Assembly: GCA_029259535.1 (NCBI GenBank)
Contig: JAPHEF010000001.1
Location: 87,399-139,128, forward strand
Direction: 5' to 3'
Origin: Candidatus Alkanophaga liquidiphilum
GTDB lineage: Archaea; Halobacteriota; Syntropharchaeia; Alkanophagales; B39-G2
DNA length: 51,730 nt
The notes beneath the pieces are model-generated. The model saw nothing but the letters and a program-made list of their open reading frames with translations. It was not told where the DNA came from and did no database searches. Below are positions 10,371 to 31,134 of the stretch, piece after piece. The position numbers and the translations under genes are program-made. Each line of letters begins with the position of its first letter. The stretch's first letter is position 1.

Positions 10371-13215
10371 ATTTCAATCCCACCTTGGTCTGATTTTCTC
10401 ATGAACTTTGCTCGAAACTGTCTGATAAATGCCTTCATTTCAATCCCACCTTGGTCTGATTTTCTCAACCTCTTCAGCCGTCTCCCTTATCGTAAATAAA
10501 AGATTTCAATCCCACCTTGGTCTGATTTTCTCCAAAAAGCTTGAGCCGAAGCGGACGGAATACAGCATTTCAATCCCACCTTGGTCTGATTTTCTCTCAG
10601 AAGTGCTTCAGATAAAGCCACCCAAGACGGCTCACGAATTTCAATCCCACCTTGGTCTGATTTTCTCACCTCTGCCAGCGTAAATGCCGACCCATTGCCT
10701 GCAATTTCAATCCCACCTTGGTCTGATTTTCTCCAACTGACGGCACGGCGAACGGCAAATATCAAGTAATATTTCAATCCCACCTTGGTCTGATTTTCTC
10801 ACATCTACATGCAGCTTTCGGTGGACGGCTTGACGTTATTTCAATCCCACCTTGGTCTGATTTTCTCGTGATATCAGCGATTGAAGCGAAACTTGCGCAC
10901 GTGAATTTCAATCCCACCTTGGTCTGATTTTCTCTGTTCTTGACGTGCGAGCACCTGCTTACGAGAAGAATTTCAATCCCACCTTGGTCTGATTTTCTCC
11001 TGTATCCTGTCATGCAGGTAATACACAAGAACTGTGATTTCAATCCCACCTTGGTCTGATTTTCTCGCGATGGATAATCGAGCGGAAGACTTGGAGCGAC
11101 CTCGATTTCAATCCCACCTTGGTCTGATTTTCTCTGCTCGAAGTAGTATCTATCGCTCTTCACCAGCATGAAAACATTTCAATCCCACCTTGGTCTGATT
11201 TTCTCTCGCTTTCGGTTTTCGCTGGTGTTAAGAAAAGAAGCAATTTCAATCCCACCTTGGTCTGATTTTCTCATGGAAATAAAAACCTTCCGGCCCGCCT
11301 GGTTAAGGCATTTCAATCCCACCTTGGTCTGATTTTCTCGTAATTAGGGTGAGGGTCGATGACTTGTTGGTATATATTTCAATCCCACCTTGGTCTGATT
11401 TTCTCATATAATGAGATACCAGTGCCTACATCGTGAATTTTGATTTCAATCCCACCTTGGTCTGATTTTCTCGCATCCAGAATCCGCTAAGGAAATAGAG
11501 CAAATGATAGATTTCAATCCCACCTTGGTCTGATTTTCTCGCCGATGTGCTGGAGATAAACGAGGCATTAGTAAATTTCAATCCCACCTTGGTCTGATTT
11601 TCTCTGTATCAATCACGTATGCTCTGTCATCTCCTAAGTCAATTTCAATCCCACCTTGGTCTGATTTTCTCGTTAGGGGGATTGCACGGCAGAGGCTATC
11701 AATCGATGCGGAGTATTCATTTCAATCCCACCTTGGTCTGATTTTCTCCGAGGGAGGTCATCAAGAAGATAGCAAGTGAGTGTGATTTCAATCCCACCTT
11801 GGTCTGATTTTCTCTGTCGCTTTCGGTTTTCGCTTGTGTTAAGAAAAGCAATTTCAATCCCACCTTGGTCTGATTTTCTCCGTTCCATCTCTTGAAGGGC
11901 GCTCTCAATGTGCCGTATTTCAATCCCACCTTGGTCTGATTTTCTCATCCACAACCGCAATTCGGGCATGTTCTCCCTGCGATTTCAATCCCACCTTGGT
12001 CTGATTTTCTCTGGGAGATGCAATACTTGAGCAGCAGATACTTTTGGATTTCAATCCCACCTTGGTCTGATTTTCTCCAAAAAGTTGCACCACAGGTATG
12101 CGTATGAGCCTCTACGATTTCAATCCCACCTTGGTCTGATTTTCTCGCCAAACTCGCACGTAAGAAAGAGCCCTGGGAGATAACGATTTCAATCCCACCT
12201 TGGTCTGATTTTCTCAGAAAAACACGTTTCCCATTGCAGGCGAGGAATCGGATTTCAATCCCACCTTGGTCTGATTTTCTCTAACCTGCAGCTTACAGAC
12301 GAGAAACCTGCCGATTTCTATTTCAATCCCACCTTGGTCTGATTTTCTCGACCGTAGTTATTCAATGTCTATATAGAACTATTGGATTTCAATCCCACCT
12401 TGGTCTGATTTTCTCACAGCTTTTTGTATCTCTTTTGCGACGTTAGCAACATTTCAATCCCACCTTGGTCTGATTTTCTCGCTTAGACCGTCTTGCAGAG
12501 CTTTTCCAAAAAAACTATTTCAATCCCACCTTGGTCTGATTTTCTCAAGAGTTGCAAAAAATTCAAAAACTACAAAACGAGCTAATTTCAATCCCACCTT
12601 GGTCTGATTTTCTCAAGAAAAGTCCCTCCACTGCCTCGCCCGGTGACAAGGATTTCAATCCCACCTTGGTCTGATTTTCTCCCCAGGATGGGCTTAAACC
12701 CACGCCCATGGAAAAATTATTTCAATCCCACCTTGGTCTGATTTTCTCTAACCTGCAACTCGCCGACAAGAAACCAGCAGATTTCTATTTCAATCCCACC
12801 TTGGTCTGATTTTCTCTTTACACCATTAGATTTTACAGTTCTATATACCCAGTATTTCAATCCCACCTTGGTCTGATTTTCTCCGACGTTTCTCAACGAA
12901 CTTGCGAAGAACACGAGAAATTTCAATCCCACCTTGGTCTGATTTTCTCTTCCAAAAAAACTCGTGTCCGAGAGCAGAATGTCAATATTTCAATCCCACC
13001 TTGGTCTGATTTTCTCGCGATTCGCAAAGAGCATATATATTTGATTGACGCATTTCAATCCCACCTTGGTCTGATTTTCTCTCAAGGAAAAGGCGAGCGA
13101 CATTTTTAAGCCTTTTTCATTTCAATCCCACCTTGGTCTGATTTTCTCGGCTTAAATGCGGTGGTCTCGTTCATACTCGGCGTAAATTTCAATCCCACCT
13201 TGGTCTGATTTTCTC
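10371..13215 (-). CRISPR. CRISPR array 1: 43 repeats (GAGAAAATCAGACCAAGGTGGGATTGAAAT in crRNA sense), 42 spacers
   Basis: 30-bp repeats counted by eye, spacers mostly 34-41 nt; leader on the right side; ATTGAAAT 3' end indicates minus-strand transcription. Confidence 0.99.
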
Positions 13216-13574
13216 AGGCAAGTTTCTTTTGCCTGCGCTCTGTTTAAAGTCATGAGGCGGCCCCATATAAAACTTACTATCTCGGATCAGTGATTCTCGT
13301 CCCCATATATAAAGAATCCAGACTCGCCATGTGGGAATTTTTTCAGGTTTACAGGGCTCTCGTGCAGTTTTTTAGAGATAGAAACCATATTTTCGGGGAG
13401 CGCCGACGTGGCGACGCCCTCCTTTCCTCTTCGTGTATTTTCCCCGAACTTCTTCACACCTTTAGGAATAATTGTGTTACCACCGCTACGATCCCAGATG
13501 CCATCTCCGCAGATATCTCGTAAATTTGCAGATTTCAAGCAATTAATTTTTGAAAATAATCGCTTTGTATAGGA
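13216..13574 (-). promoter_or_regulatory. CRISPR leader of array 1
   Basis: Non-coding, A-tract rich, two TTTATAT..GGGG TATA-like boxes near the first repeat; identical copy precedes array 2. Confidence 0.9.
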
Positions 13575-13658: not shown

Positions 13659-13838
13659 GATGGAATCTTCGTCCTCGTTTATTATCTTCTTCAGCTCGCT
13701 CTTTATGCGTAGGAGCTCGCTTTCCGTGAGCTCACCCTCGAAGACAGAGTTCTGCACCCAGTTCATGTGCATCCGCAGGAACTTCTTGACCCTGTTCACC
13801 CGCTTGACGTTGACATCGTAGGTGATTATAACGTACAT
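13575..13838 (-). CDS. cas2: CRISPR-associated endonuclease Cas2
   Basis: MYVIITYDV...WVQNSVFEGEL...DEDSIFLY. Confidence 0.97.
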   Translation of the reverse strand: MYVIITYDVNVKRVNRVKKFLRMHMNWVQNSVFEGELTESELLRIKSELKKIINEDEDSIFLYILRTKAAMRKEVLGIERSSIESIL

Positions 13839-14683
13839 ACTAATTTTGCAAGACTCACCACTAATTCTTTCCTCCAGTACGGAGGCTTTGTAGCGCTATG
13901 AGCTAATACAGACTTTAATAATGAGCATTTTCTGTTCCTCAAAAGAGATATCACCTCAGTTGTAGTATGAGGTCTTAGAAGCTCCCGGTATTCACTCTTT
14001 CCATTTTTATACACAAGCCCCCTCTCATCAAGGGAAATATCGTCCTTACTTATAAGGTTGTAAATTTGAGTTTTCTTTAAGTCGCCCCATCCCATGTCTC
14101 TCTTCTTACCGATACTCATTTTAGCCTTTAATGAATTCTCAATATCCTTTTTTTCTCCTCTTGCAACTGCAGTCCAAAGCAGATTGGTCCTTTCGATTCG
14201 AACTTCATAAAATATATCTCTATAGGCTCCTTTTGTCTCCTGAATTTCGCTCAAACTCCCCCTCAATTTTACACCTACTGTTTCTTTCACCAGCAAGATC
14301 TTGGGAATCATGCTTTTCCTAGAGATGCAAATTCTCACTGCTCCGCCGAAGTGAGATTTTACTTCTCTTACGCTCTCTAAGCAGGCGGTTTCTCTATTTA
14401 ACCCGAAGCGCATCTCAGTGTTGTATGGAGTGAGCACTGACAATACGTCTCCCCCTCTCACTGACGGCATGAGGTAAGAAGTTGAAATCGAAGGCGTCCT
14501 ATCTGCTATAGCACGCGTGAGGTCTTCAAGGTAACGTTTGCGCCAATCCCTATTTGCATAATATTTTGCGAATGAAAAAACTCCATCCAGAGTTATCAAA
14601 GTACCCTCCAATATGTTAGGGTTGGAAAAGGTGGCTTGGAAGGGGGGTGTTCTGAAGCCGAGAGTTATAAGGAAAATTGTCAT
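13826..14683 (-). CDS. csf3: Type IV Cas5-like RAMP subunit (Csf3)
   Basis: TLDGVFSFA (LDGxL motif), G-rich loop IGKKRDMGWG and C-terminal KPPYW, all typical of Csf3; start reassigned to ATG 14683. Confidence 0.75.
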   Translation of the reverse strand: MTIFLITLGFRTPPFQATFSNPNILEGTLITLDGVFSFAKYYANRDWRKRYLEDLTRAIADRTPSISTSYLMPSVRGGDVLSVLTPYNTEMRFGLNRETACLESVREVKSHFGGAVRICISRKSMIPKILLVKETVGVKLRGSLSEIQETKGAYRDIFYEVRIERTNLLWTAVARGEKKDIENSLKAKMSIGKKRDMGWGDLKKTQIYNLISKDDISLDERGLVYKNGKSEYRELLRPHTTTEVISLLRNRKCSLLKSVLAHSATKPPYWRKELVVSLAKLVCTL

Positions 14684-14699
14684 GTCTTCTTTTCTCTCC

Positions 14700-15638
14700 T
14701 TACCTTCTTCTGCTTCTTTCTTTGATCTCTGGTGCATCATTCAATGCTTCAAATATCTGATCTATTCTGTCTTGGACGAGCTTTTCATAAGCTTGCTCAT
14801 AGTCCTGAGTATTTATTGATGAAGAGTAACTGACTTCGAGACTGCCAAAACCTCTGACAACTGAGCCACCGACGTTTGGGAAGTTTTTAAGAGTTTTAAA
14901 CACGAGCCCCCACTCTGCATCGGTCAGCGGAATAAGCTCCTCAATGTAGGTAACGAAAACTGTACCTGGAGCTATCGCCTCCCTTGTAAATATCTGTTGG
15001 ACTGCCGCCTCCTCGCGTCCTTCCTTTTCTAAGCCTAAAATTCTGTCAAGTTCCTCAAAGTTTGTTTTAATTTCAAGCTGCGATATCTTTGCTTTGTCGT
15101 CCTTTCTTATCATTTGCACTGAGATCAGAATATCGGAGAGTTTCGTCTTTGGTTGTTCTCTCACCAAGTCATCTATTAAATCATAAGTCTCTTCCACAAC
15201 AGGATACCCGATACCGAATTTCAACTTACTTGGCACCATGAATTTTGCAAGCGCACATCCCATTATGGAAAGTGGCAGGAGAGGTTTAACGTAACTCTCC
15301 ATCTTGTTAGATATCTTTTTAGCGGTAAGTTCCTGCTCACCAGCCCTTGCTAGAATCCCGCCACTAAATAACGTCATGAGAGTTCCTGCATTTGCTGTAA
15401 ATTCTCCAGCAGACCCGCTCTTCTTTGCCTCCCATACTCTTTTAACATCTCTTAAAAATTGAATTGCCATCTCGTCTCTAAAAGCTCCTCTGATGCTGTT
15501 CCCAGGGATTATGGGAACCTCCAAGAGTTCTCCATCTTCCTTCACTATTGGAAGTTTGTAGAGGAGCACGGTCGTCCCGACGGACTCGAATCCCACGCTC
15601 AGAGGCTCTTTTGCCTTGAGTTTAAGAACAACCCGCAT
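14700..15638 (-). CDS. csf2: Type IV Cas7-like RAMP backbone (Csf2)
   Basis: PIIPGNSIRGAFRD, LFSGGIL, PLSIMG and VGGSVVRGFG motifs of the Csf2/type III-like Cas7 group. Confidence 0.8.
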   Translation of the reverse strand: MRVVLKLKAKEPLSVGFESVGTTVLLYKLPIVKEDGELLEVPIIPGNSIRGAFRDEMAIQFLRDVKRVWEAKKSGSAGEFTANAGTLMTLFSGGILARAGEQELTAKKISNKMESYVKPLLPLSIMGCALAKFMVPSKLKFGIGYPVVEETYDLIDDLVREQPKTKLSDILISVQMIRKDDKAKISQLEIKTNFEELDRILGLEKEGREEAAVQQIFTREAIAPGTVFVTYIEELIPLTDAEWGLVFKTLKNFPNVGGSVVRGFGSLEVSYSSSINTQDYEQAYEKLVQDRIDQIFEALNDAPEIKERSRRR

Positions 15639-15639
15639 T

Positions 15640-15996
15640 TTATCCCTCCCCTTCTACCTCTATACCTTTACTTGCAGCGTAGAACACTACACTCAGATAA
15701 GGATAGCGTTTTACGTAGTCTAGGACTTCTTTCTCCATGCTTCTCGCTTTGTCAAGCGATACTCTCAGCGCGTTAGCTTTCTCTTTTGAAAGAAAAATTG
15801 CATCTCCGGCGAGCTCTTTTAACAGGCGCTCTGCGAAGTCTTCCACACTATTAACGGACCTTGAAAGCATAGCGACGCGTTTTGCTAGAATCGTATTCCA
15901 CTTCTTCCGTACGTCTTTTGAGATCTTGCTCCAGTCGATAAGCTCATTAATCGCCCCTAATAAATCTATTACCGCTTCCCTTGCATCTCCTCCCAC
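15640..15996 (-). CDS. cas11: Small alpha-helical subunit (Cas11-like) of type IV module
   Basis: About 118 aa, predicted helical; IDWSKI...W motif; between large subunit and csf2; GAGGTG RBS before GTG 15996. Confidence 0.65.
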   Translation of the reverse strand: MGGDAREAVIDLLGAINELIDWSKISKDVRKKWNTILAKRVAMLSRSVNSVEDFAERLLKELAGDAIFLSKEKANALRVSLDKARSMEKEVLDYVKRYPYLSVVFYAASKGIEVEGEG

Positions 15997-17554
15997 GCTT
16001 ACCACCTCTTTTCGGAGGTTTGGGTAGTACTCTCACCCCATATATCTCCCTCAGCCTCCTTAGACACTCTACTGCTTTATCCTTATTACTTCCTACGAAG
16101 TCCATGATTTCAGAAAACTCCTCTACGGTCAAATCCTTCTTCTCTCCCCAGCATATAACTCCGGATCTTAATGAGCTTTCTAATATGAACTTTTTACGTC
16201 GTCCTACTCTGACCGCTGGATGCATAAATTGTGGAATGAAACTTATGGTTAGAGGTATCAATGTGAATTTAGGATTTAGTAGGAAGGCAGCATCTCTGTA
16301 ACCATCTTCCGTCTTTGCTGCTTCAAGCCAAAGTTTACTAAGCGTCTTAAGCCAGAAGTTTCCGGAGATACTTAATGCGATTTCTTCTTTCACCGGGGCT
16401 TGCATTTGTAGTTGGTATCTTTCAACAAGCGCGGGACTAGGTATTACAGCCCCCTCCGTCCCTTGATCCTCTAATAAAAAGCCGCAGAAACAAGCAGGGC
16501 ACACGTGGTCGCCTGAAAACATCATCTGTGGCGCGTCTGCAAATGTTTTACCAAACTCATACCTGATGTTAGCTGGTTCCCCACAAAATACGCACATGTT
16601 ACTGCCCGTGAGCTCTCCACTGATTGAATTTCTCACACCGTCAGCAGATACTGAGATGTTTTTCTTCGTAGCCCAACTTTCTACTTCCTCCCTTAAAAAC
16701 TCTTCTATACATTCTTTGAAGCTCGCATCGAATCCCGAATCTACATAAATCAGCGCTCCGTCCTTGCTTCCACCAATAGTGAGCATTGAGAGGGCGTCAC
16801 CGTATGAAATTTTTACACCATCGCTTTCGATTAGCGTGTCCCCCTCATAATATTCAATGGAGAACTCCTGCCCGAACTCCCTCGCTACCGGTAGCTTTAT
16901 GCTAAGGGTGTCATCTTTAACCTCCACCCTAAACTCTCCTATATCTAACTCTTTCACAATTCCCTCAATTTCCTCTATTGATCTTATTCGGAAAGAAATG
17001 GTTGGTGAATATATGTATTTCACTCTACTTATACCTAAAACTTCTTTGAATCTTTTAGCATAAGCTCTTGAAAGCTTCTTTATTAAACGCTTGTGTAATA
17101 ACGACGCCACTGTAAATCTATACTCTCCTGAAAGCTTTAAGGGAATCAATTTCAGAAAAGGTGATTGTCCCTCTGTAAGGAAGAGGAAATAATTACCCTC
17201 GATTTGTTCCACCAACTGACTTCTCTCTATTTTTTTGATCGGATTTCCTCTATTATGATGGTGCTGTATTATGACATTGGTAGTTTTACCTAAATCTATA
17301 TTACCTTTAAGACTTTCAAGGATGTTATGATAAATAGAGGGATTTGGAGAGAAATGCCACCAATTTGCTCCTCTCTCTCCTTGATACCAGAGCATCATCC
17401 CTTTGAAAAAGTCATGGATCATGCTTGCTGCAGCTATTTCTTTATCATTCTTCTGTAAGCTTGCAGCAGAAACAACGAGCATGTGGTGGGAAAGGTCGTC
17501 TATCAGTGGAACGGAGGTTTTCTTATCCGTCCTCGCTAACACCCCACGGATCAT
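15947..17554 (-). CDS. Type IV-C-like large subunit: N-terminal HD domain plus Cys4 zinc site (Cas10-like)
   Basis: H...IHDFFK...QHHH HD-type motifs; CVFCG...CPACF zinc ligands; no GGDD; first gene of a csf module. Confidence 0.72.
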   Translation of the reverse strand: MIRGVLARTDKKTSVPLIDDLSHHMLVVSAASLQKNDKEIAAASMIHDFFKGMMLWYQGERGANWWHFSPNPSIYHNILESLKGNIDLGKTTNVIIQHHHNRGNPIKKIERSQLVEQIEGNYFLFLTEGQSPFLKLIPLKLSGEYRFTVASLLHKRLIKKLSRAYAKRFKEVLGISRVKYIYSPTISFRIRSIEEIEGIVKELDIGEFRVEVKDDTLSIKLPVAREFGQEFSIEYYEGDTLIESDGVKISYGDALSMLTIGGSKDGALIYVDSGFDASFKECIEEFLREEVESWATKKNISVSADGVRNSISGELTGSNMCVFCGEPANIRYEFGKTFADAPQMMFSGDHVCPACFCGFLLEDQGTEGAVIPSPALVERYQLQMQAPVKEEIALSISGNFWLKTLSKLWLEAAKTEDGYRDAAFLLNPKFTLIPLTISFIPQFMHPAVRVGRRKKFILESSLRSGVICWGEKKDLTVEEFSEIMDFVGSNKDKAVECLRRLREIYGVRVLPKPPKRGGKRGRRCKGSGNRFIRGD

Positions 17555-17585
17555 ACTTCCAACCTCCCTAAGAGCATATAAAACC

Positions 17586-18560
<975 letters not shown>

Positions 18561-18986
18561 TTAGCCTACATCTTTTACGTGCAGGGCTTCGACCACCCGC
18601 CAGGCTTTATTCACGACTTCTTGGTCTGCCGTCACCAGCTTCGCCCCAGCGAGCTTGGCGAGCGCCACATAACTGGCGTCATATAAGGTAATGTCGAGGT
18701 CGACCGCCGTCCTCACCACCTCCTCACAATACCTGCCCCGCAAGCCCCAAAGCTCAATCCCATACTTCTCCAAAGACTCAGCAGCCCTAATCAGCTCCTC
18801 CTTCGAGTATAGGTTGCTGTAGCGCAGAGCATTGAGCACCTCGTAGGGCATTAAACTCGGGCTCGCAAGCTCGACCGCCCCCCGTATGAACTTGTCCCTG
18901 AGAAGGAGTGCTTTTCCGCTGTGCTCCTCCTCCAAGAACCACTTTACGACCACGGAGGCGTCCACTACGACTTTCTCCGCCGCCAC
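18561..18986 (-). CDS. vapC: VapC-family PIN-domain toxin
   Basis: VVVDASVVVKWF, YEVLNAL, TLYDASYVALA, LVTAD acidic PIN motifs. Confidence 0.9.
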   Translation of the reverse strand: MAAEKVVVDASVVVKWFLEEEHSGKALLLRDKFIRGAVELASPSLMPYEVLNALRYSNLYSKEELIRAAESLEKYGIELWGLRGRYCEEVVRTAVDLDITLYDASYVALAKLAGAKLVTADQEVVNKAWRVVEALHVKDVG

Positions 18987-19228: not shown

Positions 19229-19786
19229 TCACGCCGAGAAGCAAAGCTCGTAATAGGCGCACCGTCGGCAAATCGGCTTCCGCTCAGGCTTCGGCAGCCA
19301 CCCACGCACAACACGCTTGATGTCTTCAAGCACCTTTTCAAGCTCCTTTTCAGCCTGTTTGTCGAGCGAAAGCTCTTTCTTCTTCCTGAGCTTCGGGTAG
19401 CTGATCACCGCCTTTACCCTCTCGATACCCTTCCTCTTTTTCAGGAAATAGAGGTAGTAAAGCGTTTGCATCTCATGAGCTTTCTCCATTTTATCGGACT
19501 TCTTCACCTCGTGGATCTCAAGGACTTCGCCGTTCTGCATGAAATCCACCGCTATCAAATCGTCAATAATCACGTTCTTCTCACGTCCCTCATAGCTGTA
19601 TTCGTGCAGTAAGAAGCCCAACGCCACGAGGTCGGACTCCCGCTCCATCTGGATTCCGTGCGAGAACAGCCAGAGCTTCGTCCTGCACACGAAATAGTAG
19701 TTCACCTGCGTCCCCCTGACGAGAAGCTCGTGCTTCAGCTCCCGCTCCAGTTCCGGCTTTGATTCCAACCCCCGCTCGCCGTTCAT
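19229..19786 (-). CDS. cas4: CRISPR-associated Cas4
   Basis: VNYYFVCRTKLWLF, VDF, HEVKKS, QTLYYL, C-terminal CRRCAYYELC Fe-S cluster ligands. Confidence 0.95.
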   Translation of the reverse strand: MNGERGLESKPELERELKHELLVRGTQVNYYFVCRTKLWLFSHGIQMERESDLVALGFLLHEYSYEGREKNVIIDDLIAVDFMQNGEVLEIHEVKKSDKMEKAHEMQTLYYLYFLKKRKGIERVKAVISYPKLRKKKELSLDKQAEKELEKVLEDIKRVVRGWLPKPERKPICRRCAYYELCFSA

Positions 19787-19787
19787 G

Positions 19788-21728
19788 TCAAAGGATGAAA
19801 TCTTCGTCCGCAAGAACTTCTGTGACGATTAAGTCCTCGATCTCTATCCTCTTCTTGCTGTAAAGAGGCGCCAGCCCCCACAAGCATCCCGAAAGCCCCT
19901 CCGAAACCCTCGCATACGACAACCACCTTTCGAGCTTCTCCGAGTAGATGGATTCGATGTAGTCCGAATACAGAAACTTCATCCATTCGTTCCTGTCCAC
20001 GCCTCCGATCTCCGCAAACTCCTCATAAGGGTCTTCAAGCAGAGAGGGCGTAACGACTCCATGCACCACCTTCTCTCTCCTTTCCCGCCAGTCCCCCACT
20101 ACAACTTCCCGCCTCTTCCGGTCTATCCTCTCAATGAAGGCGTTGTCAAGAATCCAGATGAGGTCGTATTCCGTCTCCTCGCCGCCGTAAATCACCTTCC
20201 ACCGCAGCGTGTCCCCTCTGAACCTCCTGAAAGAGTTTTTGAACGACCGCCACCATCTCCTCAGGCTTTCAGCAACGTCCTCGTCCACATTTTCTCCCTC
20301 TAAATACGCCTCGACCATGCTCTCGACCTTAAACATGAACTTCGAAAACGGGAAGCTCTCCTGCAACTTCCTGAGAACCTGCTCTCTCCCGTAGCTCCTC
20401 AGCGCCTTTGAAATCGACCAGAGGACGGCGCCCATGAACCTCGGAATTTTCTCCCTCTTCAGCTCCTTATCCCGAAAGGCTCTACTCACGGCGTCCGAAA
20501 ACTCATAATAGCTCAACTTCCGCCCATCAAACCCCCTCAGAGCCTCGACGACGCTCACGTGCGCCACGCAGTATATCTCGCTCCGCTCTCCCTCTCGCCC
20601 TATCCTCCCAATTCTCTGCATGAAATTCCGCAGGTACCTCCCGGAATCGATGTATGCGAGGCAAACCGGGTAATTGACGCCCACCTCCGCCTTCGCCGTC
20701 GTGATGACTATGTCGTAGTCCGTAGGCTCGAACTCGAAGCCCTTTTGCCTCGTCTGGAGCCCCGTATTCACCCCTATTCGGGCGTCAGGAAACTCCGCAC
20801 GTATCTTCCTTTCCGCCAGCAAAGCCTCCCTCAAAGAGTCGAAAAGGAAGAAGGCTCTCTTGTTATCGTCCAGAGCCTCTGAGAGTCCCTCCTTTACCTC
20901 CTCTCTCAGACCGTCGCCCTCGAACAGCCATTTGTAAAGGGAGCCTTGCCTCGAAACCTCGATGAAATGAATTTCCTGCTCTCCTTGAACGGCGCGTCCC
21001 TCTCTCCCCACTTCTTGCCGCGCAAGCTCCCACTCTAACCCTTCCAAGTATTCAAACAAGACCCCCTCTGGTGTTGCGGAGGAGAAGAACCATTTGATGT
21101 CGAAAAATTCTCTAACCGACAGTAGCATCATCAGGACGTTGGCAATTTGCTCCTCATCGTAGAGATGGTATTCGTCGAAGACGATGTAGTCCAGCTTGTT
21201 GAAGAACTCCGTCCAGTCCGGGAAACTTAAGATGTAACGCTCCCTTCCGCTCCAGTCGGTATGGTAGCCGCCGTGAATGAGGAAATTTATGATGTCAGGA
21301 TTCGTCACCACGACCTCCGCCGCCGTCACCCGCTCAAGCAACTCCTTTGCTCTTTCAATGCCGTGCCGCTCCAGCCTCTGCCCCGTCAGAATTTCGACTT
21401 TGATGTATTTGTCGAGCGTCCTCGCCATGTCCTCGACGAGCGCATTGGTGGGAGCGACAATTAGCCCCCGCCTCGGCATCAAATCTTCTTTGGAGCGGAG
21501 AGAGGGCAGCATGAAGGCGAACGTCTTGCCGGCGCCCGTCGGCGCAACGACTACCGTCACCTCCTTCCGCTCGCTCAAATCCGAATAGAACACCTCTTGA
21601 AACTTGTGAAGCCGGAGCATGTCTCCGCCAAGCTCGATCTGAACGCTCCCGAACGGAATCCTTTTCTCCTCGACCGTGACGGTGACGGACTCCGAAGCTG
21701 GAGCTGTATCTGAAGGCGAGCCGCTCAT
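19788..21728 (-). CDS. cas3: Type I-D helicase Cas3' (no HD domain)
   Basis: APTGAGKT, TNPDI, FDEYHLY, SSATP, QRIGRIGR; no N-terminal HD domain. Confidence 0.92.
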   Translation of the reverse strand: MSGSPSDTAPASESVTVTVEEKRIPFGSVQIELGGDMLRLHKFQEVFYSDLSERKEVTVVVAPTGAGKTFAFMLPSLRSKEDLMPRRGLIVAPTNALVEDMARTLDKYIKVEILTGQRLERHGIERAKELLERVTAAEVVVTNPDIINFLIHGGYHTDWSGRERYILSFPDWTEFFNKLDYIVFDEYHLYDEEQIANVLMMLLSVREFFDIKWFFSSATPEGVLFEYLEGLEWELARQEVGREGRAVQGEQEIHFIEVSRQGSLYKWLFEGDGLREEVKEGLSEALDDNKRAFFLFDSLREALLAERKIRAEFPDARIGVNTGLQTRQKGFEFEPTDYDIVITTAKAEVGVNYPVCLAYIDSGRYLRNFMQRIGRIGREGERSEIYCVAHVSVVEALRGFDGRKLSYYEFSDAVSRAFRDKELKREKIPRFMGAVLWSISKALRSYGREQVLRKLQESFPFSKFMFKVESMVEAYLEGENVDEDVAESLRRWWRSFKNSFRRFRGDTLRWKVIYGGEETEYDLIWILDNAFIERIDRKRREVVVGDWRERREKVVHGVVTPSLLEDPYEEFAEIGGVDRNEWMKFLYSDYIESIYSEKLERWLSYARVSEGLSGCLWGLAPLYSKKRIEIEDLIVTEVLADEDFIL

Positions 21729-22369
21729 CCGAAAAGCCTCCTCTCTAAACGCTCCAAATCTTCCTCTCCCAACCCCTTTACCAAAATGTACTGCGCCAAG
21801 ACGGGCTCGAACGTTAGTCCATCTCTCACCTCAAGCTCCTCACCGAAGAGCTTCAGCACGTATATGTTCATCCAAGCTTCCTTCTCAAGCTTATCAACAC
21901 GCTCTAACAGCAGCAAGCACTCCCTCCCGTTGCCCACTCTCAGGGTGAAGCGTTCTGGTAACTCTAAATCGCCAAGTAGGGAAGCTTGAAACGTCGAACC
22001 CCCCTCTATCCCTTGAACGAGCCTGAAATCCTTATAGAGGGGCTGGTTACCCCCTCCTTTGAGAGCGACGAGCGTCGAGAAGCTCCTTGCCCCGTCGTTC
22101 CCGAAGCTACTGCTGTTTGCGAAGATGCGCGTCCTCCTGAAGTTGAGGGGGCGAGCGACGCTCCAGAGGAAGCCAAGACGCTTGAGCTCCTCGTATTCGG
22201 GCTTCTCCTTCATCAAATAGGTCAATTCCCTATCTTTGCAGAAGGCGAAGTTCGTGGCGTATGTCAGGGCGAGGTCGCCGATGAATGGCGAGGTTGAAGC
22301 CACGCCGCTTTCAGTCCTCGTGTAGTAAAAAAGAGGAGATAGGAGGGTTATTTTGAAGTGCTCGACCAT
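21725..22369 (-). CDS. cas5d: Type I-D Cas5 (Csc1)
   Basis: FIGDLALTYA, SVARP, LRVGNGRECLL; position between cas7d and cas3'. Confidence 0.8.
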   Translation of the reverse strand: MVEHFKITLLSPLFYYTRTESGVASTSPFIGDLALTYATNFAFCKDRELTYLMKEKPEYEELKRLGFLWSVARPLNFRRTRIFANSSSFGNDGARSFSTLVALKGGGNQPLYKDFRLVQGIEGGSTFQASLLGDLELPERFTLRVGNGRECLLLLERVDKLEKEAWMNIYVLKLFGEELEVRDGLTFEPVLAQYILVKGLGEEDLERLERRLFG

Positions 22370-22382
22370 CTCCCGCTCACCT

Positions 22383-23435
22383 CTAGAGGCTGAGCCTCTC
22401 AAGGTATTCGCCGATGTTACCCTCTTTCACCACCTTGCACTCGACCAAGTAGCGGATGGAGTCGTCGAGAAGCCTGAGATACAGCTGCTTCAGCTTTTCC
22501 TCCTCTTTCAGCAGGTTTAAGAGTGTTTCCGTCAACTTTTCCACCTGCTCGCCCTCCAAAACTCTCTGTGAGCACTCCTTGAGCTTCCCAACACAGTAGT
22601 CAACTACGGTTTCGAGACTCACTTCGCCGCCGCCCCACTCCTTCGTCAGCAGGTAAGAACTTATTGGAGGCTCAAACTGGTCGAGAGCGATGGCGACGAC
22701 GTGATTCCGCACGTTCGCGTCCATGACGTTGCTCTGCGCTCCGTATCTCGTCGTTTTCAGGATGGAAAGCATGACGTGCGCAAAGGCTTCGGGCGTCACG
22801 TCTGGGAATGTGACGAACTGCGGGAAGAAGGCTCCGGGCTTCACGTATTGGACATCGAAGAGCGTTTCTCGGTGCTCACCCCGCTCCTTGTCCCACATCG
22901 TCCCCTCCTCGCTCAGGGCGTTGTGCGTCAGCTCCTCGGTAATTTCAGCCTTGTCCCTGAGCGAGTAGCTCCACTCGTAGATGACCCTTGCGGGAAGCCC
23001 GACAGCCTCGCCGCCCTCCTCGGTGATGCTGTCGCCGAATGTTAACGAGTTCGGATTTGCAAGCTGCACCCGCTCCTTTGTCAGATTATACTCGACTGCG
23101 GGGTCCACGATCCCTAACTTCCTGCACAGCAGGAGCCCCGTGAGCTTCTCCCTCGACTTCAATTTCCTCGACGGGATGACAACAACCTCCCTGTCACCAA
23201 CTTCCGTGCTTACCACCTCATCAGGCTCCGTCGAGCGATTTATCAAGTATCCGACCGTCTCTCTCACTAAAAGCACCTTTATGACGTTCGGCGTCCTCTT
23301 TCCGAAACGCTCTTGGAAGAACTCTCTTGGAATCGTCTGGTAGAGGCTTTCTCTGAAGTCCCGGACGACGTCCTCATCGTATTCCACGAACGCCCTTTCA
23401 ACAACCCCCGCAGCGCTACCCCTCCTGCGTGGCAA
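22383..23435 (-). CDS. cas7d: Type I-D Cas7 (Csc2)
   Basis: IPSRKLKSREK, NPNSLTFGDS, RVIYEWSYS, THNA, VKPGAFFPQFVT, TTRYGAQ. Confidence 0.9.
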   Translation of the reverse strand: MPRRRGSAAGVVERAFVEYDEDVVRDFRESLYQTIPREFFQERFGKRTPNVIKVLLVRETVGYLINRSTEPDEVVSTEVGDREVVVIPSRKLKSREKLTGLLLCRKLGIVDPAVEYNLTKERVQLANPNSLTFGDSITEEGGEAVGLPARVIYEWSYSLRDKAEITEELTHNALSEEGTMWDKERGEHRETLFDVQYVKPGAFFPQFVTFPDVTPEAFAHVMLSILKTTRYGAQSNVMDANVRNHVVAIALDQFEPPISSYLLTKEWGGGEVSLETVVDYCVGKLKECSQRVLEGEQVEKLTETLLNLLKEEEKLKQLYLRLLDDSIRYLVECKVVKEGNIGEYLERLSL

Positions 23436-23814
23436 CTCCGCTCACCTCCTCAGCAGCTCTCTCCCTCCACTCAGCCCACCGCTCATCGGATTTCTTTGCA
23501 TACTCGAAGGCGAAGCCATAAGTCCAGTAGCGAAGTTCGTTCTTCGATGGAAGTCTGCCCTGCCAAATCTTCTCGTAAAGCTCCTCGTAGAACGCCTTGC
23601 AGAATTTCTCGACGGCGTCTCTCCGCCCGAACCTCGTCTTCCTCTCGATTACTCCTGCCATCAGGGAAATCACGTCCCCCTTCCCGAGATTCCGCCGAAT
23701 CCCGTGCTTCAGCCCCTCAAACGCCGCCCTGAACAGCCATGTCTGCTTGGAGCCGCTGCGCCCACTCCACTTGATGTCCGCCGCCAGTTCAGCTAACTTC
23801 TCAAGTACTCCCAT
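23416..23814 (-). CDS. cas11d: Cas11d small subunit from an internal in-frame start within cas10d
   Basis: Strong SD GGAGGTGA a few nt upstream of in-frame ATG 23814 (MGVLEKLAELAA...), 132 aa. Confidence 0.75.
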   Translation of the reverse strand: MGVLEKLAELAADIKWSGRSGSKQTWLFRAAFEGLKHGIRRNLGKGDVISLMAGVIERKTRFGRRDAVEKFCKAFYEELYEKIWQGRLPSKNELRYWTYGFAFEYAKKSDERWAEWRERAAEEVSGVATQEG

Positions 23815-26064
23815 CTTCTCACCTCCCACACGCTCGAAAACGAGCATAAGGCCATCTTCATGCGCTCTAACAAACCCCTCCCGTGAGCGGTCATCCAACC
23901 TATACAGGTAAAAGAAGAACGCTAAGCCCTGCGGCTCCGCCGAATAATCATTAAGCATCCTCAGAAGCTCGTTTTGATAATTCCTGCCGCCCACCCGTTG
24001 CGCAAGCCTCCTTAAAAGCTCATACTCCCTTTCAACCGCCTCCACCTCGTCCAGCCTTATTTCGTCCCAGCCAAGCCTCTTTAGCGCCTTCGGGGCGTAG
24101 TCAAAGGTCAAGGTCGCCCTCTTAACTCTGTCCGGGTTCATCGCATACGTCAGATAAACCTTGAAGCCCGTATCCTTTACAAAGCTCAGAAGCGTGCGAA
24201 AATGACGAGCCAAGAACTCAGCATCGCCCCCTATCGCTAACGGAGCCATCAGAAAGGGCGCAAGGTCTTCCGGGAGGTCTGCAGGGTCAAAACCGTAAAC
24301 AAACTTGCACATAGACCTAAAAGGGTCGAAAAAGCGTCCTAAGCCCCCGAATATCTCCGTTACTCTCTTCGTCACGCCCCCGACGTTCACAAGCGGGATA
24401 GTGTAATCGTAGGCGTCCACGTAAACCGTGTAAACCTCCTTACCCTGCCCGAAGGCGAGCCTTCTGAGCATGATTTCCGCCAAGCATGTCCCGCAAATAC
24501 GTTTCTCCCAGTTTTTTATGGAGACGACGGTGCGGTTCGTGAAGCCACGAGGAGAGAAGCCGAAAGCCACATCGTCCCTCGCCGCAACGCCCGCCTCACC
24601 CCCGCAGAGACAGCACATGTTGCGCTTGTCCGCCAAGCTCCTCGGCTCAAGCCTCGAAAGCAGCGGCTCGCCGTCAATATAAGCAAAGTTCAGAACCTCC
24701 CTGAAGACTTTGCGAAAACTCACCTGCTCCCCCTCATAATTTTTCTCCAGCAGCTCCCTGAGCTTCGTGATAAGCTCGTCCTTGACCTCCGCACCCAACC
24801 TCTTGGTCGCCCCTACGAGCTTCACGTAATTCTTCAACCCTGTGTCACGCCTCCCTAAAATCTCGGCGGCGTTCGGTAGAAAACTTAAGTCTAAGTCGGA
24901 GAAGTAAGCCTCCTCAGCCTCCCTTTTCAGCCTTTCGACCTCCCTACTGTCGACGGAAAGTTGCAGTATTAGCTTAAGAAGCACGAAAATTTCGAACTTC
25001 TCGGCGTCGAACTTTTCGATCTCCTTGCTAATTGCCTCCTTTAACCGCTCGTCCCTCGAAATACCGTAGTAAAGTGCTTCTTTATTCCTGAGAAGCCTCT
25101 CAAGGAACCTTGCCACGTTTTCCTTGCTTGGCTCAACGAGCCTGAAGACTCCAAGCTGTGCCTTCTGCCTATCGATTTTCACCAACTCTTCCATCCGCTC
25201 CAGAATTTTCGCCTCCAACTCTCCTGCAAGCTCCTCAACAGCCCCCTCAAGAAACTCCCTGCTTAAGGGCTCGCCGAGCCAGATGAAGCCCCGTGGCGAC
25301 ACGAGCAGAAGCTTTCCGGAAACTCGCCTCATGATTCCTTCCAGCAAGAACCTCGTAATCAACTCGTAAGGGGTGTCCTCAAAGTGGAAGGAGTGGACCC
25401 CATCGAAGTGTCTCTTAAGCCTTTTATGAAGCTCTCGGGACGTCTCAGCAAAGGATTCGGTTGGAGGGAGGGAAATTGTGTCTGCGAGGTGCACGACATT
25501 CTGCAAGTATTCCCTGACCACCCTGTCGAGTCCTCGTCTCCGAGGTAATGAGACGGTGATTTCCCGATCAGTGTATCTCGTTCTGTCTTCCGTGCTGAGA
25601 ACTAAGTAGCGGACGATGTTCTTTTCCTCCTCGGAAAGTTCTATACCGAGCCGCCTGATAACCTCAGAAAGCCTTTCAAGCGCCTCTCTCAGGTCGGTCG
25701 TTCCGAAGAGCTTGTTGATGTCGTGAAGGGCGATAGAGAGCATTGCGCACCTCACAAGCATCTGAAGGTCCGCATCTCCGCTCAACAAAAGCCCTGACAG
25801 CTCCCTGCTTTTGAGAAGTTTCTGCTCTAAAAGGAGCATGGCAGCGGGTATGCCGTTCAGAATATGCATCGGGTAGCTCATGTCTGGATACTCGCGGAAG
25901 CCGAAGCCGCCCTTTGCTGAGATGAGCCGAAACTCCTCGAAAAGTCTCGGGAAAACTTCGTTAAGAAACCGCCGCACCTCCTCCTTAAAGGGCTGCGTCT
26001 CAAAAACCTCCTCCACCTTGACCCTAATCCTCGGTCTCCGCCGCTCCTCGGACACTTCACCCAC
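23416..26064 (-). CDS. cas10d: Type I-D large subunit Cas10d (Csc3) with HD nuclease domain
   Basis: HILNG...ALHDINK...HLAD HD domain; CCLCG...FTNR...ICGTCLAE zinc site; helical C-terminal domain. Confidence 0.9.
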   Translation of the reverse strand: MGEVSEERRRPRIRVKVEEVFETQPFKEEVRRFLNEVFPRLFEEFRLISAKGGFGFREYPDMSYPMHILNGIPAAMLLLEQKLLKSRELSGLLLSGDADLQMLVRCAMLSIALHDINKLFGTTDLREALERLSEVIRRLGIELSEEEKNIVRYLVLSTEDRTRYTDREITVSLPRRRGLDRVVREYLQNVVHLADTISLPPTESFAETSRELHKRLKRHFDGVHSFHFEDTPYELITRFLLEGIMRRVSGKLLLVSPRGFIWLGEPLSREFLEGAVEELAGELEAKILERMEELVKIDRQKAQLGVFRLVEPSKENVARFLERLLRNKEALYYGISRDERLKEAISKEIEKFDAEKFEIFVLLKLILQLSVDSREVERLKREAEEAYFSDLDLSFLPNAAEILGRRDTGLKNYVKLVGATKRLGAEVKDELITKLRELLEKNYEGEQVSFRKVFREVLNFAYIDGEPLLSRLEPRSLADKRNMCCLCGGEAGVAARDDVAFGFSPRGFTNRTVVSIKNWEKRICGTCLAEIMLRRLAFGQGKEVYTVYVDAYDYTIPLVNVGGVTKRVTEIFGGLGRFFDPFRSMCKFVYGFDPADLPEDLAPFLMAPLAIGGDAEFLARHFRTLLSFVKDTGFKVYLTYAMNPDRVKRATLTFDYAPKALKRLGWDEIRLDEVEAVEREYELLRRLAQRVGGRNYQNELLRMLNDYSAEPQGLAFFFYLYRLDDRSREGFVRAHEDGLMLVFERVGGEKMGVLEKLAELAADIKWSGRSGSKQTWLFRAAFEGLKHGIRRNLGKGDVISLMAGVIERKTRFGRRDAVEKFCKAFYEELYEKIWQGRLPSKNELRYWTYGFAFEYAKKSDERWAEWRERAAEEVSGVATQEG

Positions 26065-26121: not shown

Positions 26122-26712
26122 ATGAGACCGGCGCACGTCATCGTCATCGGTTTCCACGCCGCCCACATCTACAAGCCGCTCGTCGAGTTCGGCGCCTCGA
26201 AGGTCGTCTTAGTTTACTCCACCAAGGAGGAGGTCGAAGGGAGAGTCGCTGATGCGCTCGCGGAGGCTCGCCGCCTTTTCTCCGGCTTAGGTCTGCCGTA
26301 TGAGGAGCTAAAGCTCGAAGCTTACGAGTTCGAGCAGAACGTCGAGCTCCTGCGGAAGGTCATCAGGCGGGAGCGGCAAGTTATCGTCAACCTCACCGGC
26401 GGGCGGAAGATAACGTCGTTCGCCCTCCTCTACGCTGCACTCCTCGAGCCCGAGCATGTGAAAGCCATCGTTTACGTAAGCGAGGACGACGAAATCATAC
26501 GACTACCGAAGTTCCTGCCGAGCGTGAGCATCACGCCCTCCGAGCGCAAAGTCTTGAACGTCCTTGGTAAGGGGAAGTGCGTCTCCGAAATAGCCGAAAA
26601 GCTTGATATATCCCTGCCAGCGGCAATAAAGCTTGTCGGCAGCCTCGAGAGGAAGGGATTAGTAAGAAGCGAGCGAGTGGGGCGGAAAAGATTAGTCATG
26701 CCGCTTTTCTGA
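26122..26712 (+). CDS. csa3: CARF-wHTH transcriptional regulator Csa3
   Basis: N-terminal IGFH motif, VNLTGGRK CARF motif, C-terminal HTH (SEIAEKLDIS...LERKGLV). Confidence 0.88.
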   Translation: MRPAHVIVIGFHAAHIYKPLVEFGASKVVLVYSTKEEVEGRVADALAEARRLFSGLGLPYEELKLEAYEFEQNVELLRKVIRRERQVIVNLTGGRKITSFALLYAALLEPEHVKAIVYVSEDDEIIRLPKFLPSVSITPSERKVLNVLGKGKCVSEIAEKLDISLPAAIKLVGSLERKGLVRSERVGRKRLVMPLF

Positions 26713-27453
26713 TGTCTGCTGACGCCCCTTAACAACCTCCACCATCCCGAAGCCCATGGAGTTTTTCTCGCCGAAGCCAGCCTCATATCCGAACTTGAGA
26801 AGGGCAGGGTCGCCACGTGCGACGAAGCTCATCATCGTGCCCCGATGCCACGTATTTTTAATTTGCGTTCTGACGAGCTTTGCCGCCCCCCTCGGCTCCA
26901 CTTGGAAGTCCCCGCTCGGCGGCGTCCCGTAGAAATCCTCATACTTCCCCAAAAGGTTTTTGCGGAGGTTTTCGTAGAACTTCCGTTCCGACGGATATAG
27001 GTCCCAAGTTTTGCGCCGCCCATCGGCATCGACGACAGTCCGCACCACGATGGGCGACAGCGTTCTGAACACCACCTCACTTCCAATTTCGGGCGTTTTC
27101 AGCGTCTCGATACGTTCCACGACGAACCTCGCATTTGTGATTTGAAACTCCGGCTCTCCGAGGACGCCTTCGACGAACGCCGAGACCACGCTCGCCTTCG
27201 GCGACGAAAAGAGGAAGCGGCAGTCCTTCAGCCAGAGTTTGTCCTGCACGACCCTGCGGAAGCCTTCGGGGAACAGCCGTGAGAACGTGAAAAACTTAAA
27301 GCGCTGTTGGCGGCTGTGCAAGCCGAGCTCCGGGCGCACGCTCATAATCTTTCGATAAATGGCACTGGCTACCATGTAATTGTAGTTCAACGGTAGCTTC
27401 TGAATACGCTCCGAGCGTAAGCTCACTCTGACCCGCATTCTTCCCCCATTCAA
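26692..27453 (-). CDS. cas6: CRISPR endoribonuclease Cas6
   Basis: LPLNYNY, FKFFTFSRL, TLSPIVV, G-rich loop AGFGEKNSMGFGMV. Confidence 0.95.
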   Translation of the reverse strand: MNGGRMRVRVSLRSERIQKLPLNYNYMVASAIYRKIMSVRPELGLHSRQQRFKFFTFSRLFPEGFRRVVQDKLWLKDCRFLFSSPKASVVSAFVEGVLGEPEFQITNARFVVERIETLKTPEIGSEVVFRTLSPIVVRTVVDADGRRKTWDLYPSERKFYENLRKNLLGKYEDFYGTPPSGDFQVEPRGAAKLVRTQIKNTWHRGTMMSFVARGDPALLKFGYEAGFGEKNSMGFGMVEVVKGRQQTSEKRHD

Positions 27454-30499: not shown

Positions 30500-30691
30500 C
30501 AGGAATATCGAAACACGCTGTTTGCGAGCGCCATACGATTTCAAAGCCAAATTCATGAGGACGGACGGCGTAAAAAAGCAGATGGAGGTACCTATCGGTT
30601 GCCCTCCCCCACCACAATCCCAGCAGTAATTTCTATAATTTTTTCTCTCAATTTTCCCCTTTAATTATTTTGACATCTTGTTTTTTCACTT

Positions 30692-31134
30692 TTCCTCTAC
30701 ATCCTGAGAACGAAAGCGGCGATGAGGAAGGAGGTCTTAGGAATAGAGAGAAGCTCCATTGAAAGTATTCTCTAATCCTATACAAAGCGATTATTTTCAA
30801 AAATTAATTGCTTGAAATCTGCAAATTTACGAGATATCTGCGGAGATGGCATCTGGGATCGTAGCGGTGGTAACACAATTATTCCTAAAGGTGTGAAGAA
30901 GTTCGGGGAAAATACACGAAGAGGAAAGGAGGGCGTCGCCACGTCGGCGCTCCCCGAAAATATGGTTTCTATCTCTAAAAAACTGCACGAGAGCCCTGTA
31001 AACCTGAAAAAATTCCCACATGGCGAGTCTGGATTCTTTATATATGGGGACGAGAATCACTGATCCGAGATAGTAAGTTTTATATGGGGCCGCCTCATGA
31101 CTTTAAACAGAGCGCAGGCAAAAGAAACTTGCCT
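30692..31134 (+). repeat. 443-bp inverted repeat copy 2: orphan cas2 3' fragment plus leader of array 2
   Basis: Begins with cas2 codons FLYILRTKAAMRKEVLGIERSSIESIL*, then a leader identical to that of array 1. Confidence 0.93.

Follow-up and report, generated by a model that had tools for sequence, protein, structure and literature searches.

What do four genes encode that stand between cas1 and cas2, inside an adaptation operon, and what could they be doing there? The question is raised by a CRISPR locus of the archaeon Candidatus Alkanophaga liquidiphilum, contained in a stretch of 51,730 nucleotides (nt) of contig JAPHEF010000001.1 that is referred to below as the window. Four intact genes on the minus strand (13826-17554) fill the interval from cas1 to cas2, on the 3' side of a type I-D effector operon. 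A first-pass annotation, made from the DNA letters alone, had placed a type IV-C-like module between the two adaptation genes, and the open reading frame (ORF) coordinates together with the Pfam Cas_Cas1 and CRISPR_Cas2 matches bear out this arrangement. By the sequence comparisons described below, the four genes are a complete type IV-C effector of the variant IV-C1, lying beside type I-D genes. We estimate a probability of roughly 0.85 that they constitute an intact, selectively maintained IV-C1 effector cassette, seated at the cas1/cas2 junction of the adaptation operon that follows the I-D effector operon and acting by the mechanism proposed below.

The identity of the cassette is carried by two kinds of match. 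PADLOC profiles specific to type IV-C span all four proteins at full length: the large subunit matches Cas10-like_0_IVC (4.5e-92, residues 1-525), the small subunit CAS-IV-C effector_SS (9.4e-24), the Csf2-like protein Csf2_0_IV (6e-56, full length) and the Csf3-like protein CAS-IV-C effector_G5 (1.6e-60). Among PDB sequences, the sole relative of each protein is the corresponding chain of the Pyrococcus abyssi (Pab) IV-C1 complex (11fs/11hc/11hd): Cas10IVc for the large subunit (2.6e-74, query residues 1-525 against 47-607 of the chain), Cas7c for Csf2 (5.8e-82), Cas5c for Csf3 (2e-39, query residues 23-298) and Cas11c for the small subunit (3.4e-26). With both the IV-C profiles and the solved IV-C1 complex matched, the earlier identification of an HD and zinc-bearing large subunit, a small subunit, Csf2 and Csf3 proves correct. 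Pfam and NCBIfam are nearly blind to the four proteins. Csf2 reaches NCBIfam TIGR03115 (cas7_csf2) at 1.7e-14, with 53.8 bits against a cut-off of 130, because the model is built on other type IV subtypes, and Pfam RAMPs at 1.1e-6. A Csf2-type Cas7 is a diagnostic marker of type IV subtypes. The proteins scanned between 13.5 and 39.7 kb of the window include no DinG, the helicase of IV-A, and no match to a CysH-like gene of IV-B; the sole helicase among them is the I-D Cas3', and DinG profiles match at 4.8e-7 or weaker.

The large subunit, of 535 amino acids, aligns to the end of the 608-residue Pab protein and has no Cas11-like C-terminal domain. Because of its shortness and of an end that coincides with that of the Pab protein, the cassette is assigned to the variant IV-C1; in a tree of large subunits, that of the window falls in an archaeal clade, apart from three longer distant outgroup homologues. 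Residue conservation was examined by aligning the large subunit of the window to seven homologues, all of full length, drawn from a library of 1.84 billion proteins. Across these eight sequences H23, H24, H47, D48, K51, H67, H98, H99 and E110 of the N-terminal HD nuclease domain are invariant, as are C321, C324, C352 and C355 of a CxxC...CxxC zinc finger. D48 aligns with Pab D94 and E110 with Pab E159. In the published account, mutation of Pab D94 abolished interference, and Pab E159 is described as an allosteric switch (Pittman et al., Cell Rep 2026, PMC13676074). The cassette is also under selection: all four genes have ratios of non-synonymous to synonymous substitution (dN/dS) of 0.14-0.21 against metagenome locus L034, and none contains a stop codon. 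These ratios indicate purifying selection on each of the four genes. Two gene starts deserve comment. The Csf3-like protein probably begins at M20 (14683), as the profile and PDB alignments begin at residues 22-23. The listed start of the small subunit is a GTG that makes its gene overlap the large-subunit gene by 59 nt, and this start codon is uncertain.

To our knowledge, type IV-C was the last class 1 subtype to remain uncharacterised until 2026. In the text of Pittman et al. (PMC13676074) that we cite here, 31 unique IV-C loci are catalogued, which co-localise with type I-A in two cases, I-D in five, III-A in one and III-C in one. The Thermococcus IV-C1 complex described there loads crRNAs (CRISPR RNAs) from host arrays of one repeat group, and both IV-C1 systems tested show DNA interference that depends on the HD domain and on a protospacer adjacent motif (PAM; 5'-GGG-3'). 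The complex is reported to bind double-stranded DNA by way of the PAM and to cleave single-stranded DNA and RNA collaterally, an activation explained by cryo-electron microscopy (PDB 11FS, 11HC, 11HD). An earlier survey, as far as its text was available, describes IV-C loci as commonly associated with type I systems and often devoid of arrays and adaptation genes (Pinilla-Redondo et al. 2019, PMC7038947).

The cassette of the window resembles the IV-C1 systems of Pyrococcus abyssi GE-23 and Thermococcus onnurineus NA1 (Ton) in having the same four subunits in the same order, both CxxC pairs and the HD residues, a short large subunit, and a chromosomal location in a genome that has another CRISPR-Cas system. 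Unlike the Pab protein, its large subunit has no disordered N-terminal extension of about 46 residues and carries FAD in place of FTD. In Ton, the cassette comes after cas6 (TON_0326-0322, PMC13676074), in contrast to the position between cas1 and cas2 seen here, and the window cassette belongs to a separate sub-clade; its large subunit is 28-37% identical to representatives of the cas6-linked relatives. The partner system also differs, being I-D here and not III-A. In this respect the locus is like the five published cases of IV-C co-localised with I-D (PMC13676074, Figure S1); the present locus may be one of the five.

We infer crRNA loading, PAM-dependent binding and HD-driven collateral cleavage from the Thermococcus onnurineus and Pyrococcus abyssi systems. 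In the proposed mechanism, the IV-C complex would load crRNAs cut by the single Cas6 of the locus from common arrays (8-nt tag ATTGAAAT), with Cas5c, Cas7c and Cas10IVc holding the tag and a filament of Cas7c and Cas11c holding the guide. The complex would bind double-stranded DNA beside a PAM, probably NGG on the target strand; the R-loop then formed would allosterically activate the HD domain of Cas10IVc, and nearby single-stranded DNA and RNA would be cut. One spacer repertoire and one Cas4-Cas1-Cas2 module would in this way feed both the I-D effector, with its Cas10d HD domain and Cas3' helicase, and the collateral nuclease of IV-C. The cassette belongs to an IV-C1 sub-lineage found between cas1 and cas2 in several archaeal lineages, which would bring with it an AT-rich, TATA-like spacer and leave cas2 tightly coupled to csf3. 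Plasmid-borne type IV-A3 systems use the adaptation machinery and repeats of a host type I-E system, act in trans, and carry DinG and no nuclease. The present locus is comparable to them in that a type IV effector would rely on the Cas1-Cas2 and compatible repeats of another system, and differs from them in that its effector is encoded on the chromosome, possesses an HD nuclease and lies inside the adaptation operon.

By analogy with the Thermococcus system described above, the use of a common crRNA pool is plausible, and the arrays and the Cas6 complement of the genome are in keeping with it. The assembly, which is 90% complete, encodes one Cas6 (PF01881) and one Cas1, and the Csf2-like gene is its sole match to the RAMP family (PF03787). 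The first-pass statement that a single Cas6 is available and csf5 is absent thus holds for the assembled genome, and because Csf2 is the only RAMP found in it, no type III system is found there either. This Cas6 is 37-48% identical to the Cas6 proteins encoded next to IV-C cassettes elsewhere, and the tag ATTGAAA[T/C] is comparable to ATTGAAAG of the arrays beside L036 and L037. All three arrays of the genome belong to one repeat family, and together they hold about 122 spacers. The two arrays of the window hold 42 and about 50 spacers, in agreement with the figure of about 90 given before; the third, on contig C32 of the same genome (5311-7341), has 31 repeats and 30 spacers, with the same repeat core and the end bases GTTTC...TTCAC. 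The repeat of array 1 in the crRNA sense is GAGAAAATCAGACCAAGGTGGGATTGAAAT, as oriented by where the leader lies and by the ATTGAAA tag. Arrays 1 and 2 have no spacer in common. Arrays 2 and 3 have in common one near-identical spacer and one overlapping spacer.

Array 2 is preceded by a sequence 100% identical to the leader of array 1 and, before it, by a Cas2 fragment corresponding to residues 59-87 (96.6% identical by tblastn), the DNA being identical over the stub and the leader. Since the two arrays share no spacers, both must have grown or been replaced after the duplication of the leader. As a separate observation, the two copies of the cas2 end and leader (13216-13660 and 30686-31134) lie in inverted orientation on either side of the entire cas locus of 17 kb, which could be inverted by way of them.

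Characterised type I-D systems recognise a GTN PAM. From two overlapping spacer pairs, CCC and TCC can be placed directly 5' of a protospacer (n=2); CCC fits NGG on the target strand exactly, TCC fits at one of the two G positions, and neither resembles GTN. With two cases, this signal is a hint. In the published comparison, Candidatus Alkanophaga liquidiphilum is listed among the genomes with IV-C, and the spacers led to 15 exact protospacers with an NGG PAM (PMC13676074, in the text available).

The distribution of related cassettes bears on how the unusual position arose. IV-C is very rare: the large subunit matches 12 clusters at 50% identity among the 1.84 billion protein representatives, and of 401 genomes sampled from the phylum 4 have a match. 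A metagenome scan with a large-subunit alignment yielded 10 loci, which were annotated by tblastn; a scan of genome contigs with the single large-subunit protein gave 28 pattern matches and no confirmed relative, and a scan with an alignment of three Csf2 sequences recovered three loci only. The order cas1, four cassette genes, cas2 recurs in the metagenome loci L034, L035 and L036, whose large subunits are 88%, 49% and 48% identical to that of the window, and all four ORFs are intact in each of them as in the window. Genome G250 shows cas4, cas1 and the large subunit up to the end of the contig; it has the very same Cas1 as L036, and the two therefore represent one organism. A further locus (L033, large subunit 99% identical) begins inside the cassette and says nothing on the layout. 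Elsewhere the arrangement is different: five further metagenome loci, genome G310 and a Thermococcaceae metagenome-assembled genome have cas6 directly upstream of the cassette, as does T. onnurineus, and G184 and L038 have neither cas6 nor cas1 there.

The large-subunit tree comprises 13 sequences with three distant homologues as outgroup; its rows are translations of high-scoring segment pairs with upstream stop codons treated as gaps, and two broken or redundant loci (L019, L033) are left out. Within it, the four embedded loci make up a single clade (Shimodaira-Hasegawa-like approximate likelihood ratio test, 99). The Cas1 family, in turn, is common, being found in 68 of the 401 phylum genomes at E<=1e-80. 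Among the genome loci fetched for the closest Cas1 homologues, cas2 starts about one base after cas1 in 28 of 29, G250 being the exception, which marks the embedded state as derived. In the Cas1 tree a branch with a support of 96 parts the window Cas1 from those of L035 and L036, which lie inside an Archaeoglobaceae clade beside a non-embedded locus, and monophyly of the Cas1 proteins from embedded loci is rejected by the approximately unbiased (AU) test (quick tree, p 0.0005). A single large-subunit clade combined with scattered Cas1 proteins means that the history of the cassette is not that of its flanks. Two courses would explain this: movement of the cassette from lineage to lineage, each time into one and the same slot, or replacement of the adaptation genes beside a cassette that stayed in place.

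The same relatives lend some substance to a different explanation of the locus, in which IV-C is an autonomous system that owns its adaptation genes and array, in the order array, cas4, cas1, IV-C, cas2, and the I-D operon is a neighbour that was added or retained. The organism represented by L036 and G250 has this very layout, its array lying directly upstream of cas4, and tblastn finds no I-D gene within the 14.4-kb stretch of L036. The embedding is therefore tied to the adaptation operon rather than to I-D as such. The monophyly of the embedded cassettes also speaks for an autonomous system. Against autonomy speak the derived nature of the embedded state, evident from the direct succession of cas1 and cas2 in almost all loci with the closest Cas1, and the failure of embedded-locus Cas1 proteins to form one clade, grouped as they broadly are by host family. 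In every embedded locus, moreover, the GC content at third codon positions (GC3) of cas4, cas1 and cas2 is markedly above that of the IV-C genes, which would be unexpected of a single inherited or transferred unit. On balance we regard an autonomous IV-C system as unlikely.

The difference in base composition is itself the starting point of another explanation, put forward with the first-pass annotation, that the cassette entered this genome recently by horizontal transfer. The four IV-C genes have a GC content of 0.41-0.45 and a GC3 of 0.41-0.45, in a genome with a GC content of 0.515, against a GC3 of 0.67-0.74 in ten neighbouring genes (cas6, csa3, the four I-D genes, cas4, the PIN-domain gene, cas1 and cas2); the low overall GC of cas2 arises from its second codon positions. 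The AT-richness noted earlier relative to the I-D genes is thus sharper than had been claimed, with abrupt edges at the cas1 stop and the cas2 start. It does not, however, date the insertion, as it recurs in all comparable loci. Mean GC3 of the IV-C genes is below that of every flanking cas gene, be it cas1, cas2, cas4 or cas6, in all 11 fetched loci with a comparable flank, whatever the GC content of the host, and the same is true gene by gene in 10 of the 11, with a smaller gap in L022. Examples are L034 (0.40-0.44 in IV-C genes against 0.82-0.84 in flanking cas genes), L035 (0.24-0.32 against 0.56-0.63), L036 (0.25-0.32 against 0.36-0.51), the Thermococcaceae metagenome-assembled genome (0.35-0.58 against 0.70-0.78), L037 (0.34-0.47 against 0.75-0.80) and L042 (0.42-0.49 against 0.82). 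Low GC3 is a family trait of IV-C cassettes and no mark of recent arrival. Repeated transfer from AT-rich donors, slow amelioration and selection on codon usage are the possibilities that could account for its persistence.

Divergence from L034 leads to the same conclusion. The two loci have in common both the layout and the GC3 contrast, and synonymous divergence (dS) between them amounts to 0.21-0.38 for the cassette genes, 0.57 for cas2 and 0.44 for the C-terminal part of cas1, so that the insertion predates their split. A sister species, G227 (assembly 88% complete), might seem to favour a recent event: it has large arrays of the same repeat family on contigs C33, C51, C14 and C70, and its genome has no match to Cas1 or the large subunit, nor do the six contig stretches examined contain a cas gene. 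At the syntenic sites of G227 the flanks are present and the window segments 10.3-29.3 kb and 30.5-34.7 kb are absent; the whole cas region, and not IV-C alone, is missing or unassembled. Recent insertion is for these reasons quite improbable. The earlier description of the module as acquired stands as far as the trees and the AU test show differing histories of cassette and flanks, and falls where it takes AT-richness as the sign of a recent event.

The borders of the cassette have the same bearing. Terminal inverted or direct repeats and target-site duplications are not found at them, a repeat search of 13700-17700 giving short imperfect pairs located elsewhere, and this too argues against a recent insertion; there is no recombinase among the four cassette genes. 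A transposon-like mobile element is not supported, as terminal repeats and a target-site duplication are not found at the borders, nor an integrase or transposase among the four genes. On the cas2 side, the end of csf3 and the beginning of cas2 have 13 nt in common (ATGTACGTTATAA), an overlap that had been noticed before. On the cas1 side, the 31-nt gap before the large-subunit gene reads ggTTTTATATgctcttaGGGAGGTtggaagtATG and contains both a TATA-like TTTTATAT and a Shine-Dalgarno-like GGGAGGT. The TATA-like box and ribosome-binding site reported earlier are accordingly both present, the box itself being one base off the TTTTTATA that had been quoted; that exact string occurs at the same place in L034. 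The gap may serve as a promoter, to judge by these motifs. The canonical 1-nt junction of cas1 and cas2 is TGGTGGTAG-C-ATG, and all four embedded loci have instead an AT-rich, TATA-like spacer of 31-46 nt. A contig from one RNA-library run (X1) deserves mention in its own right: it matches the window from 17578 upward, at the end of cas1, and continues on the other side into more than 255 nt of unrelated sequence. Its break lies 8 nt past the cas1 stop, precisely at the cassette border, and the contig could be a cassette-free variant, the cas1 of another organism or an artefact of the assembly graph.

Several observations weigh against an embedded IV-C1 effector that draws on the common arrays. 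The crRNA tag is ATTGAAA[T/C] here, ending in T (C in array 3), as opposed to ATTGAAAG, ending in G, in the arrays beside the IV-C loci L036 and L037. If the GTN PAM of type I-D held in this genome, one set of spacers would be unable to serve both effectors equally. Array 1 spacers have no match among 50,697 phage records, an exact scan of IMG/VR with 3 of the approximately 122 spacers returns none, and the spacers find no target in their own genome outside the arrays, bar one 18-nt match at chance level; for array 2, comparison with 68 genomes of the order gives array-to-array matches only. In the zinc-finger region, between the two CxxC pairs, FAD stands in the window protein where an FTD motif is conserved (FTD in six and FTS in one of the other seven aligned sequences). 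Contigs from RNA libraries (four runs of one study) cover the whole locus at flat depth, and the leader, present in two copies, has twice the surrounding depth in two of the four runs, as DNA would give; such DNA-like depth is compatible with carry-over of DNA and gives no sign of transcription. Complex assembly, crRNA loading and transcription are steps that we infer.

The flat depth and the altered motif are also what one would cite for the view that the cassette is an inactive passenger, carried in the operon and making no working effector. A passenger would hardly keep four intact ORFs in the window and in each of the three other embedded loci, purifying selection at the level described, and a full set of HD and zinc ligands, and we consider this view very improbable. 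That the genes are instead a diverged effector module of type III or of type I-A/I-B is effectively refuted, for although Csf2 has weak secondary matches to Csm3 and Cmr4 profiles (2.2e-9 and weaker), which are expected because type IV has type III ancestry, the grouping with such subunits that had been named as the point to check is not found, the best matches being IV-C-specific and tens of orders of magnitude stronger, the PDB relatives being IV-C1 chains only and the 535-residue large subunit having no GGDD cyclase motif.

The kind of system, its mechanism, the borrowing of crRNAs and the occasional co-localisation with I-D are already published, and the work of Pittman et al. 2026 (PMC13676074) has forestalled the prospect of using the locus to find the guides and targets of IV-C. 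The main text of that paper contains the string 'cas2' 0 times and 'between cas1' 0 times, and the position between cas1 and cas2, its recurrence and the incongruence of the trees are not put into words there. A literature search that included reviews and the 2025 classification met, in the text these sources make available, no account of effector genes placed between cas1 and cas2. Relative to this portion of the literature, the cas1/cas2 address of one IV-C1 sub-clade, the incongruence of cassette and Cas1, and the family-wide GC3 deficit seem to be additions, of an incremental kind.

A broader reading of these additions, though less likely than not, may be offered tentatively. In it, the IV-C1 sub-lineage is a guest cassette specialised for the 1-nt cas1/cas2 junction, which has moved between lineages into the same slot, brings a TATA-like promoter spacer of its own, takes over the translational coupling of cas2 and maintains an AT-rich codon usage. 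Movement into the same slot is suggested by the cassette tree being monophyletic and the flanking Cas1 tree not; the GC3 of the IV-C genes, in turn, is 0.1-0.45 below that of their operon neighbours in each of the 11 comparable loci. If this reading is true, co-expression with spacer capture would be guaranteed and loss of the cassette would be costly, and AT-rich codons might possibly throttle the translation of a collateral nuclease. The added observations yield an idea, open to test, of how minimalist effector modules are spread and remain linked to adaptation genes. The locus itself is a natural case in which a target-degrading I-D effector and a IV-C nuclease with collateral action on single-stranded DNA and RNA apparently share a single Cas6, a single adaptation module and some 120 spacers. 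It lends itself to the question of how the work is split between two such effectors, and whether both are served by one PAM.

Features of the CRISPR-Cas locus in the window, with coordinates, strand and supporting evidence
Feature	Coordinates	Strand	Evidence or remark
Cas10IVc large subunit, 535 amino acids	15947..17554	-	PADLOC PDLC01693; PDB 11fs_A
Cas11c small subunit, 121 amino acids listed	15640..16005	-	PADLOC PDLC01222; PDB 11fs_N
Cas7c/Csf2 backbone subunit, 312 amino acids	14700..15638	-	PADLOC PDLC01724; PDB 11fs_C
Cas5c/Csf3, 304 amino acids listed	13826..14740	-	PADLOC PDLC01219; PDB 11fs_D
Gap between cas1 and large-subunit gene, 31 nt	17555..17585	-	Sequence
cas1, 323 amino acids	17586..18557	-	Pfam Cas_Cas1 4.2e-91; GC3 0.68
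cas2, 87 amino acids	13575..13838	-	Pfam CRISPR_Cas2 3.2e-23; GC3 0.739, host-like
Leader of array 1, 359 nt	13216..13574	-	Between cas2 and first repeat
CRISPR array 1: 43 repeats of 30 nt, 42 spacers	10371..13215	-	
Inverted duplicate: last 29 cas2 codons and whole leader	30686..31134	+	tblastn, DNA alignment
CRISPR array 2: 50 matched repeats and one degenerate copy, ~50 spacers	31135..34508	+	
cas6	26692..27453	-	PADLOC Cas6 5.5e-77, typeIV_Cas6 PDLC01718 1.7e-63; Pfam Cas_Cas6_C 1.7e-37
Csa3-like CARF and winged-helix regulator	26122..26712	+	PADLOC CARF3 2.2e-59, Csa3 2.8e-20; Pfam Csa3_N and HTH domains
Cas10d	23416..26064	-	PADLOC Cas10_Id 6e-14, Cas10d 2.1e-12
Csc2/Cas7d	22383..23435	-	NCBIfam TIGR03157 9.7e-26, 90.7 bits, cut-off 38; PDB 7sba_A Cas7d 2.5e-11
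Csc1/Cas5d	21725..22402	-	NCBIfam TIGR03159 1.5e-13, 50.6 bits, cut-off 41.4
Type I-D Cas3' helicase	19788..21728	-	NCBIfam TIGR03158 8.4e-25, 87.6 bits, cut-off 69.1; PADLOC Cas3d 1.7e-39
cas4	19229..19813	-	Pfam Cas_Cas4 2.3e-53
PIN-domain gene, between cas4 and cas1	18561..18986	-	Pfam PIN 4.2e-11

The run of cas genes on the minus strand reads cas6, Cas10d, Csc2, Csc1, Cas3', cas4, PIN, cas1, the four IV-C genes, cas2, leader and array 1, with the Csa3-like regulator gene divergent from the operon. All four signature genes of type I-D are present, the Cas3' helicase being of the HD-less kind, with Csc2, Csc1 and Cas3' above their NCBIfam cut-offs, and Csc2 matches Cas7d of the type I-D Cascade of Synechocystis (PDB 7SBA/7SBB). 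Cas10d is divergent: it is matched by PADLOC profiles alone, has no match among PDB sequences, and its N-terminal translation contains the HD motif 'ALHDINK'. The PIN gene is VapC-like, and PIN genes also lie just past cas2 in five related adaptation loci (among them L049, L050, L052 and L063), those of L050, L052 and L063 being 50-56% identical. A thermosome is encoded in the window as well, which fits an archaeal host.

Upstream of cas6, an unannotated ORF (27457-28080) is associated with perfect tandem duplications of 66 nt and 65 nt, at 27737-28033 and 28354-28449. This ORF is, to all appearances, that of a repeat protein of variable copy number, and in a strain variant of two RNA-library runs (X3 and X4) two places are each short of one 66-nt unit. 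The 66-nt joints in RNA contigs had suggested a mini-array upstream of cas6; this was rejected, since the joints are tandem duplications inside the ORF and unrelated to the CRISPR repeat. The strain variants of the same two runs also show a 12-nt insertion at 19735-19743, in the overlap of cas4 and cas3', and about 0.5% single-nucleotide polymorphisms over the locus, with the order of genes unchanged.

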